A stretch of DNA of 14,647 bases. It comes from Candidatus Ratteibacteria bacterium (GTDB lineage Bacteria; Ratteibacteria; UBA8468; B48-G9; DTJG01). The stretch is from assembly GCA_049971295.1 (NCBI GenBank), contig JBMFLH010000051.1, positions 1 to 14,647 on the forward strand, written 5' to 3'. Below the pieces are notes generated by a model, which did not search any database, was not told the DNA's origin, and saw only the letters and a program-made list of their open reading frames with translations. Shown one piece after another: positions 130-10,407 of the stretch. The translations under genes and the position numbers were made by a program. Within the stretch, counting starts at the first letter, position 1. Each line of letters begins with the position of its first letter.

Positions 130-927
130 TCAGTACCTTATGTGGGATGGGGATTTTCGCAGTTTTATTCCAAGTATTATGAAAAATACCAGGCTTAAAA
201 ACGCAACAATCAATGATGATGTTGAAACATCAAATTTGTATGAAATAATCATACCAGCAACACTTGTCAGTATTCCGGTAATCCATCCCCTGATAAGAAT
301 ACCAGAAGTATTGCTACTTAACAGTTTTCCAATGAGCGCTGGAATAATCAAAAATGAGAAAACCTGAAGAATCCCTGCGATTTGAATGGAATTGACAAGC
401 ATCAGGGCAAAACTGAGAAAAAACAAGAATTCCCATAAGTAGGAATTATCTTCGCCTTTTGAAAGCGCAAAGAATTTTTTCCTGTAAGCAAACTGGAGCA
501 AGCCAATAATTGTGTACAGGATAAACATTGTAAACAAATCCTTGCCTGTAATCCACAGGATATTTCCATTTAAAATGTTTTTCAGTTCTTCAAGTCCATG
601 GGGAGTTCTGTCAAGAAGCAGAATACTTGCAGAAAACGAAAATATGTACAGTACGCCGATGAACGCTTCGATATAAACGACTTTTGATATTCTTCTGAAA
701 TACGCAAGTATTGAAGCGCCAATCACAGCAAATAGTACTCCATAGGTGGATTGTAATGCCTCTTTGCCTGTGTAAATAGCGAAGGCAGCGCCAACAGAAA
801 TCATTTGAGCGAGCGTCAGGTCAACGAAAATAATGCCCCTTTCAAGAACATGCACGCCAAAATATGTGTGAAGCAGTAGCAAAAGAATGCATCCGATAAA
901 CGGAATAAACAGCAGTGATATGTCCAT
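130..927 (-). CDS. metal (Zn/Mn/Fe) ABC transporter permease, ZnuB/MntB (ABC-3) family
   Basis: Multi-TM protein with HTYFGVHVLERGIIFVDLTLAQ, EAFIGVLY and GILQVFSFLIIPA motifs. The start is corrected to ATG at 927 (MDISLL, 265 aa), with SD GGAGGT upstream, 1 nt after the stop of the binding-protein gene. Confidence 0.9.
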   Translation of the reverse strand: MDISLLFIPFIGCILLLLLHTYFGVHVLERGIIFVDLTLAQMISVGAAFAIYTGKEALQSTYGVLFAVIGASILAYFRRISKVVYIEAFIGVLYIFSFSASILLLDRTPHGLEELKNILNGNILWITGKDLFTMFILYTIIGLLQFAYRKKFFALSKGEDNSYLWEFLFFLSFALMLVNSIQIAGILQVFSFLIIPALIGKLLSSNTSGILIRGWITGILTSVAGMIISYKFDVSTSSLIVAFLSLVFFIILGIKLRKSPSHIRY

Positions 928-928
928 G

Positions 929-1828
929 TTATACCTCCGAAAGAAGTGAAATGACTTTGTCCATAAAAGAAAACCAGTCGTCTGTGCCCGGCAAAGAACC
1001 AACATCGTGAGGCACAAGAATTACTTTAAGCCCTGTTTTTTCAGCGACAAAATCAACTGGCTTTTTGGGGCTATAAACATTTGCAAGAATCGCTGCTGGT
1101 TTTGTTTTATTAATGGTATCTATAATTTTCTGGATGTCTCCTGAAGAAGGTGGGATGCCTGGTTTTGCTTCAATGCAACCAACAATCTGGAAATTAAATT
1201 CTTTCGCAAGGTAGGAAAATAGAGTATGATAGGCAACGAATTTTTTTCCTGCAAGATTTGCTGACTTCCAGAGTTTGGTTTTTTCCTGCCACTTCGAATA
1301 AAAATCCTGGTAATTTTTTTTGTAGTATGCCTCGTTTGCAGGATCGATTTTTATCAGTATTTCAGTCATGCCCTGGGCAACTTTTAAAACATTTGAAGGA
1401 GAAAACTGGTAATGTGGATTACCGAGAGGATGGATATCGCCCATGCTTCTATCAACTGATGATGGTTTTTCGATTGGAGTAATAAACCGGGAGCAGTCAA
1501 AATTTCCGGTTTTGCCTGGCTGGATATTGGGATTTTTTGATGATTCTATGATGACTGGGAGATATCCAATTTCAAGGTCAAGTCCATTGTACATTAAGAT
1601 ATCTGCTTTTCTTGCTGCGATAATCAAACTTGGTTTTGCTTCCACATAATGAGGATCCTGGCTTGTTTTGACAAGCGTTGTAACTGAAACATGGTCTTTT
1701 CCAATCTGCTTTGCAAGGTCTGCAATCCAGGGCAGTGTTGCAACAACATTGATTTTTGCAAACAGGTTTGACGAAAACATCATCAGAAAATTTCCTGCCA
1801 GAAAAATTTTAAGAAAATTTTTTTTCAT
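929..1828 (-). CDS. metal ABC transporter substrate-binding protein, ZnuA/TroA (cluster A-I) family
   Basis: Signal peptide and VVATLP start. Metal-ligand motifs QDPHYVEAKPS, DIHPLGNPHY and YHTLFSY, plus EAKPGIPPS. No His-rich loop. SD-like AAGGGGG upstream. Confidence 0.93.
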   Translation of the reverse strand: MKKNFLKIFLAGNFLMMFSSNLFAKINVVATLPWIADLAKQIGKDHVSVTTLVKTSQDPHYVEAKPSLIIAARKADILMYNGLDLEIGYLPVIIESSKNPNIQPGKTGNFDCSRFITPIEKPSSVDRSMGDIHPLGNPHYQFSPSNVLKVAQGMTEILIKIDPANEAYYKKNYQDFYSKWQEKTKLWKSANLAGKKFVAYHTLFSYLAKEFNFQIVGCIEAKPGIPPSSGDIQKIIDTINKTKPAAILANVYSPKKPVDFVAEKTGLKVILVPHDVGSLPGTDDWFSFMDKVISLLSEV

Positions 1829-1840
1829 ATTAGCCCCCTT

Positions 1841-3193
1841 TCAGAAAGTGTGAGCAGCATGTGCTCCAACTCCGCCAATAAATTGTATGAACCATTCATT
1901 ATTTGTTCTTCTGTCTCTGTTGCTTTTATCGTAGTTATACTGAAGCCGTATTTTTGAAAATTCAGAAGGATTGAACTCAACCATTGCTGATGCTCTCCAG
2001 GGTTTGTCTCCAAAGGAAATGTTTGTGCCGTCAAGTTTGTACTGGTCTTTGGATGGTTCAAGAAGGTCGTATCTTGCGCCAAATCCCCATCTTCCAGTTT
2101 GATAAATTGACTGAAGATAAAGACCATCCTGAGCCCTTTTCAAATCCTGAATTGTTTGAGTGGTCGTGTCCAGCAGTTTGCCTTTTTGGTGTCTGAACAT
2201 GTATTCACTTTGAAGAATAAAACTTTTCCACCTTGACGGCTTCCATTTGTAAGTGAATTCAAATCCAATGAGCGTGGAATCTCCTGTGAAAATATGGTCT
2301 TCTTTAATTGAATCTGTCTTTGTTTTTCCTGAGATTACAGAAGGTCCAAAGAGAATCGTTCCGTAGTCGCCCACATCGATTGAAGATTTTATAAATGCGC
2401 TGAATGCGTGCAGTCCACCTGACGCGTCACTTCCAAAAAGAATTTCATTGTCTCCCTGCAGCGCCTCAACTCCAAATTGGGTGTAAATCGGAAGTTGTGG
2501 CAACCATGTTAATTGAATTCCCTTTTCATTGATGCCCTCGTGACCCACAAATGCCCTGTATATAAGAGGCGGGTCAACAAAATTCCAGATATGCGCATGC
2601 TGGCTATTTAATCGTCCGAAACCAGATTTAAATTTACCAATTTTCGCCTGAAGTCCTGCTGGAAGATTTGTCGTGACAAGGTATGCTTCTTCAAGTTCAA
2701 CCCCATCCTCTGTGACTGGAATTGTGGCATAAAGATTGAAAAATGGGTCAACCGGAGCAAAAAGATATAATTCTGCCGCGTGTATGTTGGCGCCTTCTTT
2801 GTGGTCAATGCCTTTTGAAATAAAGCCAGGAATGTTCCACTTTTCAAGTTCATCCCTTTTCAAACTGGAACTGTAACCAAAAGTATCAAGAATCAGTGAG
2901 ATATTGGGGTTGTAGGCGCTTGCTGCACCGAACAGTCCACCTGAAGTATAGGAAGGTTTTTCTTCTGGTTTTACAGGAATTTCTGCTGCCTGTTTTTTTA
3001 TCTGGTCTAATTCTTCCTGAAGTTGTTTGATAATCTCCTGCTGTTTTTGAATTGTCTCCTGCTGTACCTTCAGCATGTCTTCAAGAGATTTTATTCTTTC
3101 GTTGATGTCCTGGCACGTACCAGACGGTGCAAAAGCCAGCCATGATACAAGTAATAGTCCTGAAAATATCTGAGTACTTTTTTTAATTTTCAC
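1841..3193 (-). CDS. outer-membrane beta-barrel associated with metal uptake (family often annotated as zinc-regulated TonB-dependent receptor/porin)
   Basis: Signal peptide and N-terminal coiled coil, then NPNISLILD, VDPFF, LEEAY, GKFKSGFGRLNSQHAHIWNFVD and PSEFSKIRLQY motifs. C-terminus GAHAAHTF ends in Phe. GTG at 3193 is preferred over 3199 because the 3199 codon overlaps the SD AGGAGGT. Confidence 0.8.
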   Translation of the reverse strand: MKIKKSTQIFSGLLLVSWLAFAPSGTCQDINERIKSLEDMLKVQQETIQKQQEIIKQLQEELDQIKKQAAEIPVKPEEKPSYTSGGLFGAASAYNPNISLILDTFGYSSSLKRDELEKWNIPGFISKGIDHKEGANIHAAELYLFAPVDPFFNLYATIPVTEDGVELEEAYLVTTNLPAGLQAKIGKFKSGFGRLNSQHAHIWNFVDPPLIYRAFVGHEGINEKGIQLTWLPQLPIYTQFGVEALQGDNEILFGSDASGGLHAFSAFIKSSIDVGDYGTILFGPSVISGKTKTDSIKEDHIFTGDSTLIGFEFTYKWKPSRWKSFILQSEYMFRHQKGKLLDTTTQTIQDLKRAQDGLYLQSIYQTGRWGFGARYDLLEPSKDQYKLDGTNISFGDKPWRASAMVEFNPSEFSKIRLQYNYDKSNRDRRTNNEWFIQFIGGVGAHAAHTF

Positions 3194-3285
3194 GGTCACC
3201 TCCTGTTGGAATCACAATTAACAGGTGTTCTGCGATATTCAGATTAAAGAGATGTAAAACGATTTTTTAACAGGGTGGACCGCGA
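3190..3285 (-). promoter_or_regulatory. SD-sequestering RNA structure linking the RGPP codons of the leader to the RBS/start of the barrel gene
   Basis: mRNA arm UCGCGGUC-C-ACC-CUGUU (3285-3269) is complementary to AACAG-GA-GGU-GACCGUGA (3207-3190). A second local anti-SD, CACCUGUU (3228-3221), is also present. Confidence 0.6.
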
Positions 3286-3533
3286 GTAAAAGGGCTTTCA
3301 GGATAGGAGTTTTTGGTAAAAGTGGGTCTTATTGATGAAATCGTCCAGTAAACAAAGATGATGAAAAGTGATAAAAACAACTGGAACGAAAACGGCGCAA
3401 AGGCGCTCAAATTTGCGCAGGTTGAACAGTTTGCGTTAAAAGCGCTGACAAAGCAGGAGTGTGAATGGATAAGACTAATGCCTGATATTGCAAGCAGCCC
3501 CAGAAGAGAAAGTATGATAATAATTCTTCTCAT
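3267..3533 (-). CDS. 88-aa leader/arrest peptide, DUF2946-like (signal/TM, HSHSC, CSTC, C-terminal RGPP)
   Basis: Sequence MRRIIIILSLLGLLAISGISLI-HSHSC...CSTC...SPFTRGPPC*. It lies directly upstream of a metal-uptake outer-membrane protein gene. The start at 3533 is set by the promoter position. Confidence 0.75.
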   Translation of the reverse strand: MRRIIIILSLLGLLAISGISLIHSHSCFVSAFNANCSTCANLSAFAPFSFQLFLSLFIIFVYWTISSIRPTFTKNSYPESPFTRGPPC

Positions 3534-3564
3534 ATCAAAAAACATTTTACCTGTGATATGAGAA
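3527..3564. repeat. perfect 11-bp inverted repeat (candidate operator) flanking the -10 box
   Basis: TTCTCATATCA (3527-3537), a 16-nt spacer, then TGATATGAGAA (3554-3564). Confidence 0.6.
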
Positions 3565-3572
3565 TCTGTCAA
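3544..3572 (-). promoter_or_regulatory. near-consensus sigma70 promoter of the metal-uptake operon
   Basis: Minus strand TTGACA (3572-3567), 17 bp, TAAAAT (3549-3544). The ATG at 3533 follows after 10 nt with no SD. Confidence 0.75.
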
Positions 3573-3598: not shown

Positions 3599-4240
3599 TT
3601 ATTTCTTTGGGTACCCGACTGGTTGGGTCAGGATAATTTTTTGTTCATCTTTTAGATTAAGAATTTTTGCCAGATTATCTCTATCCACAATTCCAAGGAC
3701 GACAGTATTCAATCCTTCTGATGCGCAGAAAAGATAGACGTTCTGGCTGATGAAACCTGTGTCAACTGCTGAATAAAAATCTTTATCTGACTGGGAAGCT
3801 CTGCCCATTTTTGAATAGTCAGCAACATACGCAAGTACAAGAGGCGCTGTTTTTACAAACGCCTGTCTTCCAAAATTTACCCGAAAATCTCCTGATATCA
3901 CGGGCTTCAGGACATTCATTTTAGCGTCATAAACATATACGGCTTTTGGTGTTGCAACATAAATATCTATTTCCTGCCAGTTTGATGCTGATGGAGCGGT
4001 TCTTTTACCTGATTGTGATCTGTTGATGCCAGAAGCAGCCCACAGAAGATTTGAAATGGTCTGATTTGAAAGTTCATTGCTGCTGAATTCTCTCATTGAT
4101 TTTCTTGCACTCAATGCTTCCATCAATGGTTTTCCGCCTGTCATCTGCGGCTTTGGAAGATTGACCGGTTGAATTTCGTTTTCTCCTGCGAAAACAAAAA
4201 CTACAGCAATCAAGATAAACAAACCTAAATATTTTTTCAT
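3599..4240 (-). CDS. nitroreductase-family / SagB-ThcOx-type FMN oxidoreductase with N-terminal signal peptide
   Basis: ALSARKSMREF, LLWAASGINR, RTAPSASNWQEI, DTGFISQNVYLFCASEGL and QPVGYP motifs. Hydrophobic N-terminus MKKYLGLFILIAVVFVFA. SD-like AGGGG upstream. Confidence 0.9.
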   Translation of the reverse strand: MKKYLGLFILIAVVFVFAGENEIQPVNLPKPQMTGGKPLMEALSARKSMREFSSNELSNQTISNLLWAASGINRSQSGKRTAPSASNWQEIDIYVATPKAVYVYDAKMNVLKPVISGDFRVNFGRQAFVKTAPLVLAYVADYSKMGRASQSDKDFYSAVDTGFISQNVYLFCASEGLNTVVLGIVDRDNLAKILNLKDEQKIILTQPVGYPKK

Positions 4241-4595: not shown

Positions 4596-5507
4596 ATGAA
4601 AGTAGGATTTTCAGCAATGAAAATAACTCCTGACTTTAGCACGCAAATTGGCGGCGCTGGAACAGGTGAGAAAAGATATTCAACAAGTATCCTTGACGAT
4701 ATTTTTGCAAGGGCAATAGTAATTGAGTCAGAGGGAAAAAAAATTTGTTTTCTGTCCCTGGATGTAACAATTGTTACAGAAGATTACACGAAAAAAATTA
4801 GAAAATTTGCAGAATCCCTTGGTTTTCTACCTGAATCTGTGATGGTTGCTGCTGTCCAGAATCATTCAGCACCATCTCTTGGAAATTTTATGCTTGACCC
4901 AGATTTTCCACAATTACCAGAAAAATTTGAATATGTACGGGGTGGTGAAACAAAAACCTTCCAGTTTATTTTTGAAAAGATCTGTCAGGCAATAAAATCG
5001 GCAAATGAAAGTCTTGTGCCTGTTTTGCCTTCTGCTGGTAGGGCAATTTTTGATGGACTTGCCTTTAACAGGCGCGCTGTAACAAAGGCCGGTAAGGTGA
5101 GAATGCCATGGTTTTATTCAAAAATACAACAGCCGCTTGGTCCTGAGGATATCAGATACATTGAAGGACCTATTGACCCTGAAATTGGAGTTCTCTGTTT
5201 TCAGTTAGAAAATACGAGGTTTCACAGCGGGATACTTCATTTTACCTGTCATCCCGTGAATGTTTTTGCGACAGATTATTATGCAATCTCCTCTGATTGG
5301 CCAGGAGCATGGGTTTATGAACTTGAGAAATTTTTTGAATCAGGATGCTTGATTGCCAATGGGTGTTGTGGAAATATTAACCCCTGGCCAGCATTTCAAC
5401 CAGATTTTTATTCTGATCACAGAAAAATGGGAAGGGAATTTATGGAGAACCAACACCTTGGTACAACTTCTATCTTCAGGGAATATTCTCCTGGTATGCC
5501 GATATGA
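4596..5507 (+). pseudogene. neutral/alkaline ceramidase-like (N-terminal domain) hydrolase, apparently C-terminally truncated near 5435
   Basis: MKVGFSAMKITP, DDIFARAIVIE, QNHSAP, FNRR, GPIDPEIGVL, HFTCHP, ISSDWPG and NGCCGNINP motifs. After DHRKMGR the last ~21 aa overlap another open frame, and the expected C-terminal part appears to be missing. Confidence 0.6.
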
Positions 5508-6406
5508 TGCGCAGTCAGATTCGGAATGGTCCTATTGGAGCATACATAACAACAGCAAGAGGTACATATCCATGTTTTCTGAACCATTTTGTGGTTTATG
5601 AACTTGCAGCAAGGGGTGTTGAACATTTTCACTGGTACAGTTACGGTGAGATGTGGGGCAATGAAAATTACGCTAATGAAATTGTAAGGGATCTATTAAG
5701 AGAATTTGCCATTGTTCATCGAGAATTTGCAGCAGCTGAAGAATCTCTTTATGGCTCTAAGCCAGAAAAAGCAGAAATTGCAATATTATGGACACCTTCT
5801 CAGGAAATTTGGGATACTTCACTTCATCAGGATCTTGTGGCTTTTTATCTGTTGCTTCTTCATTCAAACTATGATTTTGATATCATTTCAAGTTATGATG
5901 TTGATGGCGGGCTATTAAAAAACTATAAGGTTCTTTACATGCCATTCGCATATATTGAAAGAAAGACATTCGATAAAATCAAAGAGTGGGTGTTCAAGGG
6001 TGGAAAACTTATTGTTTATGATGGTTTTTTGAAGGATGAGTATAATAACTCTGGTCTTCTGGAAGATTTTTTGCAGGGCTATCACGCCACTGTTGAGAAA
6101 AAAATTAATATCGGAAGTTTGACACATTTGCGTAATCATACTCTTTTAGACCAGGCAACGAATTTTGATTCTTCAGTAACATTTCCTGTAATATGTCAGA
6201 AGGTAAATATGAAAATTCCTGAGAAGGCAAAAATTTTGCTTATATACAGAGATGGAAAATCAGCAGCATTTGAAATGGCCAAAGGTAAAGGTAAGATTCT
6301 GGTGAGCGGTTTTTTACTCGGGTCAGCATATCAGAGAGATGAGGAGGATAAAGACAATCCTGATTGGTCAAATCTTCCAGTTGGACCACCGGCATTGAAA
6401 AAATGA
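5417..6406 (+). pseudogene. internal fragment of a glycoside hydrolase with GH42-type (class I GATase-like) trimerisation domain
   Basis: LAARGVEHFHWYSYG, AEIAILW, LLHSNYDFDII, LKNYKVLYMP, IKEWVFKGGKLI and GKGKILVSGF motifs. The frame is open from 5417 (…GIYGEPTPWYNFYLQGIFSWYAD-MMRS). The ATG at 5504 has no SD and most of the catalytic barrel is absent. Confidence 0.55.
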
Positions 6407-8805: not shown

Positions 8806-10407
8806 ATGAGCAATAGAGAACAGATTTTTACAGATATTCCATCATATGTGGTTGGTGAATTCAAGGACGCAAAAGGAACAGGTGCTGGCTGGATTTCATT
8901 TGACTATCAGCTTGACAATTTTTCTGGAAAAGGCATTGCTACAGGAGCGATCTCTCCAGCACATGAAATCGTTCTGGACCTTAAACTGAATGGATGGCAC
9001 AAACTTTACATTGCATTTAATCCTGCTATCAGGGTGTGGCTTGATGGTGATAAGGGTTACTGGCAGATTTCTGGTTCTCCTTATAATGTCAGGGATTACT
9101 TTTGTTTTGAGGCGGATTTCACAGGCAGGAAACTTCACATTGCGCCTGTGCGGGGAGCATTTACTAATAAGGAAATGATTCTTTTCTACATCAGGGTTGT
9201 TCCGTGCATCAAGCATCAGTCCAGAAGAAATCTGATTGCAACAAATGATGGTCATGGTGTGTTCTGGGAAGGTCTTGATTCCTACAAAGATTTGTACAAA
9301 TATATCCTGCTTCTTAAAGACAGTGATTTTTTCAGAATTCTGTGGGGCGTTTATGGTGGTGGCCTTTTGAGTGTGAAAAAATCAAAAGTTGCAGATAAGA
9401 TTCCATGGCCTGACGAAGTATGTTTTTATGAGAATGCATGGGTGTTTAATCGATCTGTTGAAAATGTCGTTAGACAGGGAGTTGACCCACTTGCTCTGGT
9501 AAGAGAAATTACTGGAGAAACAGGATTGGAACTTCACTTTTATTTCAGAGTTGGCGCATTTTACTGGCCATTTCCACTGCATGGTTATACATCCAGCTTT
9601 TATCTGGAAAATCCACAGTGGCATTGTGTGGACGAATACGGAAGAAAAGTGAAAAGAATCAGTTATGCTTTTTCGCAGGTACAGGATAGGGTTATGGCTT
9701 ATTTTGAAGAACTTCTTGAGTACAATCCTGATGGAATATGCCTTGCATTTAACAGGGGATTACCACTGATGATTTGTGAGCAACCAGTACTTGATGAGTT
9801 TGAAAAAACATATGGAAGAAGACCGAAACTGCCTGAAGAGGTTGACAGTCCTGAGATGCTGACAGTAAGACACAAACTTCTTTCTGATTTCGTTGCTCGC
9901 GTTCACAATCTTGTTACCTTGCATGGAAAATCTCTTTCGTGCATTGTGCCTCGTGATTTTGAGAAAAATTTAATTTTTGGGCTTGACATAGAGATGCTGG
10001 TGAAAAAAGGATATTTTGAATCTGTGTGTGTGGGCGCAGGTCACAAGGACGACCCGGAACTGAACAGCGACCTTGAACCACTGAAAAAATTAAAGGTTTC
10101 TGGTACAAAAATTTATCCTGGCGGTTCTGGTGTTAATGCTCATGGTGGAGCATGGAAGCCACAGGACCTTGTTGCGAGGGCAAGATTTATGTCTCAGATT
10201 CTTGATCACGGGTTTGATGGCGCATATTTCTGGGACATAAACCAGATTGTTGAAAGTGGAACAGAATGGGAAATTATCAGACAATTCAGCGACAGGGATA
10301 TGTTGAGCAAGATTTTACAAGGAAAATTTCCTGTCATTAAGTACCACGATACAAAAAAAATCTATGATCTGGTTGTTGACAGATACAATCCCTGGAATGC
10401 CTATTGA
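8806..10407 (+). CDS. hypothetical protein with glycoside hydrolase-like TIM barrel (GHL10/DUF187-like)
   Basis: GLELHFYFR, SSFYLENPQW, ISYAFSQVQDRVMAYFEELLEYNPDGICLAFNR and GFDGAYFWD motifs. SD AGGAG upstream. No signal peptide. Confidence 0.6.
   Translation: MSNREQIFTDIPSYVVGEFKDAKGTGAGWISFDYQLDNFSGKGIATGAISPAHEIVLDLKLNGWHKLYIAFNPAIRVWLDGDKGYWQISGSPYNVRDYFCFEADFTGRKLHIAPVRGAFTNKEMILFYIRVVPCIKHQSRRNLIATNDGHGVFWEGLDSYKDLYKYILLLKDSDFFRILWGVYGGGLLSVKKSKVADKIPWPDEVCFYENAWVFNRSVENVVRQGVDPLALVREITGETGLELHFYFRVGAFYWPFPLHGYTSSFYLENPQWHCVDEYGRKVKRISYAFSQVQDRVMAYFEELLEYNPDGICLAFNRGLPLMICEQPVLDEFEKTYGRRPKLPEEVDSPEMLTVRHKLLSDFVARVHNLVTLHGKSLSCIVPRDFEKNLIFGLDIEMLVKKGYFESVCVGAGHKDDPELNSDLEPLKKLKVSGTKIYPGGSGVNAHGGAWKPQDLVARARFMSQILDHGFDGAYFWDINQIVESGTEWEIIRQFSDRDMLSKILQGKFPVIKYHDTKKIYDLVVDRYNPWNAY

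Follow-up and report, generated by a model that had tools for sequence, protein, structure and literature searches.

The window, that is, the whole stretch of 14,647 nucleotides of Candidatus Ratteibacteria DNA analysed here, carries on its minus strand a promoter-like site, an unannotated leader gene, a 73-nt spacer and the genes for a porin, a binding protein and a permease, in this order. The predicted sigma-70 promoter (3544..3572, TTGACA-17-TAAAAT) agrees with the consensus at 11 of 12 positions; the leader has no Shine-Dalgarno (SD) sequence, and because its ATG lies 10 nt past the -10 box, the transcript is probably near-leaderless. An ATG 5-10 nt past the -10 box without an SD (a strict pattern) was observed in 19 of 63 homologs, which suggests that leaders with a promoter-adjacent ATG may be translated from leaderless mRNA. 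The leader ORF (P0001, 3267..3533) encodes 88 aa, with an N-terminus that by inspection is basic and then hydrophobic, a putative metal-binding motif of the HxH...CxxC type (H23-S-H25...C36-S-T-C39, codons at 3417..3467) and a C-terminal RGPP followed by Cys and the stop codon. The first Cys is 48 residues from the Arg of RGPP, and 44 residues intervene between CxxC and RGPP. The RGPP codons CGC GGU CCA CCC (3273..3284) are a predicted arrest site by analogy with ApdA/ApdP, whose arrest geometry, as given in the accessible text (PMC7897499, PMC10951233), is the basis for assigning the P site to the Pro86 codon (3278-3276) and the A site to Pro87.

The first downstream gene (1841..3193) encodes a porin-like outer-membrane beta-barrel of 450 aa with an N-terminal coiled coil and a C-terminal HAAHTF, for which no curated Pfam or NCBIfam family was found. 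Its AlphaFold model has a mean pLDDT of 70, the top Foldseek matches are chitoporin and OprP/OprO (E 7e-12 to 3e-10), and the protein is a candidate metal-selective porin. The second gene (929..1828) encodes a ZnuA-family metal-binding protein (PF01297, E 8e-52) and the third (130..927) an ABC-3 (ZnuB-like) permease (PF00950, E 7e-27); their best NCBIfam matches are AztC and AztB, respectively, each under the cutoff of that family. In an alignment of the binding protein with YcdH, the third ligand position is His in both, which we take to indicate a Zn-type binding protein. From this gene content, the three genes likely constitute a zinc-uptake operon, and the substrate metal may be Mn, Co or Ni rather than Zn. 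Most of the 29 loci listed share the order of barrel, binding protein and permease, as judged by ORF length and N-terminus. The residues H199, H201, H262, H445 and H448 are invariant in the porin-fold barrel family. In the close family, there is no ATPase-sized gene between the barrel and the permease (the window ends 130 nt past the permease), and in two distant loci (L027 and L030), the binding-protein gene is followed by a cut ORF with an N-terminus of ATPase-like appearance.

We searched the locus for other regulatory elements. No intrinsic terminator-like site was found between the leader and the porin gene, and the one weak site within the leader equals expectation (1 found, 1.0 expected). 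Rfam gave no matches across the entire window at gathering thresholds, riboswitch and leader families included. A Fur-family gene is present in the genome, and inspection of the listed promoters by eye revealed no obvious shared operator.

The leader resembles the proteins known as DUF2946. Its Atlas features assign it at 0.93 to a 'putative DUF2946' cluster; in profile searches, P0001 matched no Pfam or NCBIfam family, the PF11162 cutoff was not reached, and PF11162 had no match across the host genome. Among 61 homologs, 13 match PF11162 at E<=0.1 (best 5.7e-5), and 201 genomes of another phylum gave five weak matches, one of them with the CxxC-RxPP layout. The architecture is that of CruR and CutF: CruR-type DUF2946 proteins have about 45 residues between CxxC and a RAPP-like motif and are encoded by the first gene of a metal-homeostasis operon, as is the leader, and the filters published for CutF-like proteins (fewer than 150 aa, PP in the last 15 residues and a same-strand downstream gene at <=1000 nt, as worded in the text of PMC9973294) retain an 88-aa leader with PP at positions 86-87 and a same-strand gene 73 nt downstream. 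Thus, we call the leader DUF2946-like on these architectural criteria, although it falls short of the Pfam DUF2946 cutoff. It also has the form of the RAPP/RGPP (RQH) arrest peptides, which are small proteins, exported or in the membrane, with the motif a few residues from their C-terminal end; leaders that monitor Sec or YidC lie upstream of secA, secDF or yidC, whereas a porin and a metal ABC importer follow here. A genome-wide scan for other RxPP-type leaders yielded two further candidates, neither with CxxC or strong pairing.

A preliminary description of this DNA had proposed that the RGPP codons themselves form one arm of a 16-bp stem that masks the ribosome-binding site (RBS) of the barrel gene. 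Both arms indeed lie on the minus strand where they had been placed, the 5' arm UCGCGGUCCACCCUGUU at 3285-3269 and the 3' arm AACAGGAGGUGACCGUGA at 3207-3190. The 5' arm, identified by folding and duplex controls, extends beyond RGPP to a Thr wobble base and to the Cys codon plus the first nucleotide of the stop codon; the 3' arm comprises the SD, a spacer and the GUG start (3193-3191), and the SD AGGAGGUGA (3204-3196) is a 9-nt complement of the host 16S tail GGATCACCTCCTTTCT (contig C41). An upstream GUG at 3199 was considered as the start and rejected, its SD energy being -3.5 against -11.2 kcal/mol. The pairing is favoured in folding: RNAfold of 3310-3170 gave -28.8 kcal/mol (z = -2.99), a value reached by 1 of 200 shuffles, and both the 8-bp helix UCGCGGUC/GACCGUGA over the GUG and the helix CUGUU/AACAG formed in all five folding windows (106-501 nt). 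Thirteen of the 16 pairs were predicted at probabilities of 0.74-1.0, but the middle ACC/GGU helix did not stand, being absent from the minimum-energy fold, where C3274-G3202 and C3277-G3199 take its place; the proposed register is 2.8 kcal/mol worse (-17.2 versus -20.0). Three relatives from the genus that carry a CCA codon (L024, L033 and L036) are predicted to form duplexes in the ACC/GGU register. The strongest helix lies over the spacer and the start codon, not over the GGAGG core, and with the arm unoccupied, the stem is predicted to bury the start codon and most of the SD. An inner hairpin in the 73-nt spacer (3211..3236), which is a prediction only, would bring the two arms together.

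The specificity of this pairing was assessed by combining a 24-nt arm with each of the 1733 predicted start regions of the genome. The cognate duplex (-24.4 kcal/mol) ranked second, with one other equal or better, and among the 287 strong-SD start regions, its own included, no other matched it. TRGPPC has 3072 synonymous codings, of which five, counting the native one, reach or exceed the native pairing. In addition, this is the most occluded RBS of 281 strong-SD genes, costing 14.0 kcal/mol to open against a median of 4.2. When the footprint of a stalled ribosome (3290-3263) was masked, the cost fell to 7.6 kcal/mol, while decoy masks left it at 14.0-14.3; 7.6 kcal/mol is still at about the 90th percentile of the strong-SD genes of the genome, and thus the stall opens the SD only in part. 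A ribosome at the stop codon gave 8.4 kcal/mol, about equal to the stall in the model; regulation must therefore come from dwell time.

We then collected relatives of the barrel, 122 loci including duplicates. Ten with an unclear start were excluded and four had fewer than 130 upstream bases, leaving 108 usable loci, of which 104 have an R[AGSP]PP leader upstream of the barrel and four have none; removal of near-duplicates reduced the 104 to 67 non-redundant loci. Homolog starts were picked by SD energy, independently of folding, and at least one locus with a probably wrong start (L048) was kept. In the 61 aligned leaders, whose rows were chosen for the His/CxxC pattern, H23, H25, C36, C39, R84, P86 and P87 are invariant, and the distance from the first Cys to the Arg is 48-49 in 55 of the 61, in which 44-45 residues separate CxxC from the RAPP-like motif, and 48-52 in all of them. 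Within the phylum, 13 of 65 genomes have the barrel and the same 13 have the leader, with one broken match in addition. Pairing between the motif and the RBS was predicted at p>=0.5 in 38 of the 67 homologs, including 30 of the 48 loci with CCU at the first Pro, and in 37 of the 67 the stall mask cut the cost of opening the RBS by 2 kcal/mol or more, whereas two decoy masks did so in 7 and 8. A second set, obtained in two other phyla with the leader protein profile and PF11162, comprised 44 loci; eight without the CxxC-RxPP layout and one without a downstream gene were removed, leaving 35. One genome in our collection (G379, L163) has two leader matches about 2 kb apart on opposite strands.

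The codon of the first Pro carries a distinct signal. It is CCU in 48 of the 67 loci, against 17.4 expected from per-locus Pro usage (p 3e-15, kinship ignored), while the second Pro is CCU in 22 of the 67 (p 0.13). Since CCU before CC gives CCUCC, the first Pro codon thereby creates an anti-Shine-Dalgarno sequence. The excess also holds against stricter backgrounds: the other prolines of the leaders are CCU in 40% of cases (first-Pro excess p 1e-7, kinship ignored), leader Pro codons that precede a C are CCU in 24 of 53 (first-Pro excess by Fisher test p 0.003, kinship ignored), and the first Pro of PP in ordinary long ORFs is CCU in 24%. Of 41 positions scored, none exceeds the wobble base of Pro1 in its share of U (72%). 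A FastTree of the barrels shows CCU in each of the main clades and requires 16 changes for it, versus 24-31 at neighbouring wobble sites. The second set repeats the pattern, with CCU at the first Pro in 18 of 35 loci versus 6.4 expected, and so do the loci of that set with non-barrel downstream genes, mostly TonB-dependent receptors (12 of 25 versus 4.3). Stall chemistry as a cause of the CCU preference was set aside: arrest has been seen with CCA-CCC and CCC-CCA codon pairs, according to the accessible text of PMC7897499, so other Pro codons also arrest and CCU is unnecessary for stalling. Distal anti-SD sequences are described, in the part of PMC12697547 consulted, as repressing translation and as normally depleted from genes.

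The complementarity is also specific to each locus. In the 67-locus set, the arm pairs with its own start region better than with those of other loci (-15.4 versus -13.8, permutation p 1e-4), while three decoy arms gave p 0.15-0.51; it pairs better with its own start than with the start of the next gene of the same locus in 34 of 50 cases (p 5e-4), and swapping between nearest tree neighbours gave 20 better and 13 worse (p 0.032), decoys being null. For the second set, p was 0.002 with an upstream decoy arm too, and the own-versus-other result of that set is therefore confounded by GC content. With columns anchored on the SD, the flanks of CCUCC covary with those of GGAGG (p 0.005 and 0.024), and off-register columns score too. 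A pair count on a MAFFT alignment of 17 rows found nothing above shuffles; this count is uninformative because the SD is shifted by one column in six of the 17 rows, so that registers are mixed. Within the genus, 7 of 10 rows pair the wobble base of the Arg codon with the initial base of the start codon, C-G switching to U-A; where Arg is CGC in these seven rows, the start is GUG, and where it is CGU, the start is AUG or GUG. The close pair L095/L096 has CCU-CCC facing AGGGGG and CCU-CCU facing AGGAGG, an apparent compensatory SD change. Relatives thus retain the leader and the codon-level complementarity, and the covariation among these sequences is supportive but modest for arm-RBS pairing. 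Seen against the family, whose usual device would be CCU-CC with GGAGG, the stem at this locus is a shifted-register CCA-CC variant, in which the Arg and Gly codons would add the helix over the GUG.

That a stalled ribosome can open an SD stem is established for SecM. In our fold of E. coli secM-secA, the Pro166 codon marks the beginning of the helix that extends to the secA start region, and thus overlap between stall codons and a stem arm is not new in itself; the RAG codons of secM are unpaired with the secA RBS in this fold, and SecM senses translocation, not metal. The preliminary description had named secM-secA and mifM-yidC2 as models, and CutF and CruR are closer precedents. Stall-dependent opening of an SD stem is also established for CutF (PMC9973294) and for an RGPP secDF leader (PMC10987492, PMC12992588), according to the open text of these papers. 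CutF of Rhodobacter capsulatus, DUF2946-like as well, is described there and in a preprint (PMC9973294, bioRxiv 10.1101/2025.02.05.636593) as a small leader that is exported, contains a Cys motif and stalls at a Pro-rich C-terminus; the ribosome stalled there melts a stem hiding the SD of the next gene. Its motifs are CxxxC and PPP rather than CxxC and RGPP; its stem is described as intergenic and as repressing even without cutF, whereas the arm here consists of the RGPP codons; and copper prolongs its stall to induce a detoxifying oxidase, whereas the putative target here is a set of uptake genes. CruR (Bp2923 of Bordetella pertussis, DUF2946) is described in the main text of PMC9426467 as having an export signal, CxxC and a RAPP-like motif with 45 intervening residues (44 here) and 49 residues from the first Cys to the Arg (48 here), and its gene, like the leader gene here, comes first, before an outer-membrane metal importer. 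By analogy, the polarity is likely that of CruR, with metal relieving the stall. CruR itself senses copper and acts by Rho-dependent termination, and no passage on an SD stem was found in the text of that paper (PMC9426467); the present case has an additional HxH, a Zn-type ABC operon with a porin and a predicted RBS stem, and no PF11162 match.

The RAPP/RGPP motif further links the leader to the RQH-family arrest peptides ApdA/ApdP and to the RGPP leader of Alteromonas secDF2, and small ORFs with RAPP/RGPP are reported to be enriched before metal-homeostasis genes; no SD hairpin was predicted for apcA, apdA or apdP (text of PMC7897499, PMC10987492 and PMC12992588). For the secDF2 leader, stem mutants showed that arrest opens a stem masking the SD (text of PMC10987492); these peptides are described as monitoring protein export, unlike the putative metal sensing here. 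The stem of the secDF2 leader, compared here from the text of that paper, may include its RGPP codons. In the main text of open-access literature, we found neither Pro-Pro (RAPP/RGPP) codons named as an anti-SD nor a zinc case of such leaders; how new the arrangement is may also depend on Fig. 5a of PMC10987492 and on Fig. S2 of PMC9973294.

We propose that the locus encodes a zinc-linked arrest-peptide switch whose stall codons double as the anti-RBS, a reading to which we assign a probability of about 0.65. Since the RGPP codons are complementary to the RBS of the operon, a stalled ribosome would likely turn the operon on. By analogy with ApdA/ApdP and the RAPP/RGPP literature, a ribosome arrested with Pro86 in the P site would cover about 3290-3263, the entire arm, and as it would end more than 50 nt short of the SD, a 30S subunit could load there. 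At this point, the His/CxxC motif would be just out of the exit tunnel, and metal, likely Zn, would bind and fold it and so pull the nascent chain free; we infer this step from CruR, which shares the motif spacing. The freed ribosome would finish two codons later and depart, allowing the stem to refold. Low metal would thus give a long stall with uptake ON and sufficient metal the OFF state, the identity of the metal and the direction of the response being likewise drawn by analogy. The release of the RBS by a stalled ribosome, as put forward in the preliminary description, is supported in that folding, conservation and masking did not refute it.

A CruR-like reading holds that the stalled ribosome shields a pyrimidine-rich Rho-loading site, that its release leads to Rho termination and that the stem is secondary, the C/U-rich Pro codons reflecting the loading site. 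CruR itself acts in this way (text of PMC9426467), the genome has Rho, C is abundant and G scarce in the 3' half of the leader (22 C and 6 G at 3327-3268) and 63% of the leader wobble sites are pyrimidines; however, loading of Rho explains neither U specifically at Pro1, nor the locus-specific complementarity, nor the G-rich CGCGGUC helix over the start codon, and we consider it unlikely as the main mechanism. Rho termination and the RBS stem can act together, and given Rho and the C-rich half of the leader, termination may reinforce the switch; the OFF state could be strengthened in this way or by mRNA decay.

We regard it as quite unlikely that the stem and stall are real but respond to another signal, either export or membrane insertion as in SecM and MifM, or metal that stabilises the stall, as with CutF. 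The hydrophobic N-terminus and a second hydrophobic stretch in the genus would fit this, as would the need of CutF for a Sec signal and the longer stall with Cu, as described in the accessible text (PMC9973294, bioRxiv 10.1101/2025.02.05.636593), and one leader of the family (L154, genome G283) lies ahead of an outer-membrane efflux protein. The His/His/Cys/Cys set is nevertheless invariant at the CruR spacing, and the downstream genes here are for uptake, so that induction by metal would make little sense. Unregulated translational coupling, in which any passing or terminating ribosome opens the stem and RGPP merely lengthens dwell constitutively, would suit a stop codon two codons past PP and the similar effect of a stop-positioned ribosome on the SD (8.4 versus 8.3 kcal/mol), but we hold it to be very unlikely, as it leaves the invariant metal motif and its fixed spacing unaccounted for. 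Chance complementarity without function is hardly credible: CCN CCN resembles any anti-SD, its CC-CC pairing with GG-GG whatever the wobble base, and the stem is unpredicted in 29 of the 67 homologs, but the ranks among start regions and synonymous codings and the enrichment of CCU in two sets speak against it.

The locus carries a real, conserved feature. If the zinc-linked switch is correct, it is the counterpart of a switch already shown for copper genes, and CruR/CutF-type sensing would be extended from copper to zinc; the CruR paper of 2022 notes in its text that there is no riboswitch for zinc (PMC9426467). As the core logic is already published, this would be an extension and not a new class. 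It would offer a simple, testable answer for RAPP/RGPP leaders without a predicted local hairpin, namely that they act by distant pairing of stall codons with the SD, and CCU at the first Pro could be a codon signature that sorts predicted RAPP leaders into RBS-switch and Rho types. More broadly, and as a tentative generalization to which we would give not quite even odds, R-x-P-P metal-sensing leaders of several phyla may use a single six-nucleotide element twice, Pro-Pro stalling as peptide and CCU-CC serving as the anti-SD of the next gene across spacers of 30-260 nt, to form a nascent-peptide zinc sensor of uptake on a leader mRNA that is often leaderless.

Three observations concern the flanks of the operon. 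A gene for a SagB-like nitroreductase with an apparent signal peptide (3599-4240, minus strand) ends 6 nt before the longest possible start of the leader and 27 nt before the promoter-like site. On the plus strand at 4596-6406 of the window, a ceramidase-like ORF (303 aa) adjoins an ORF of 300 aa that encodes a beta-galactosidase trimerisation domain; the two appear incomplete, which points to a possible break or assembly join near 5500. Farther along the plus strand, a 533-aa ORF without a Pfam match at E<=0.1 (8806-10407) adjoins a gene for a B12-binding radical SAM protein.
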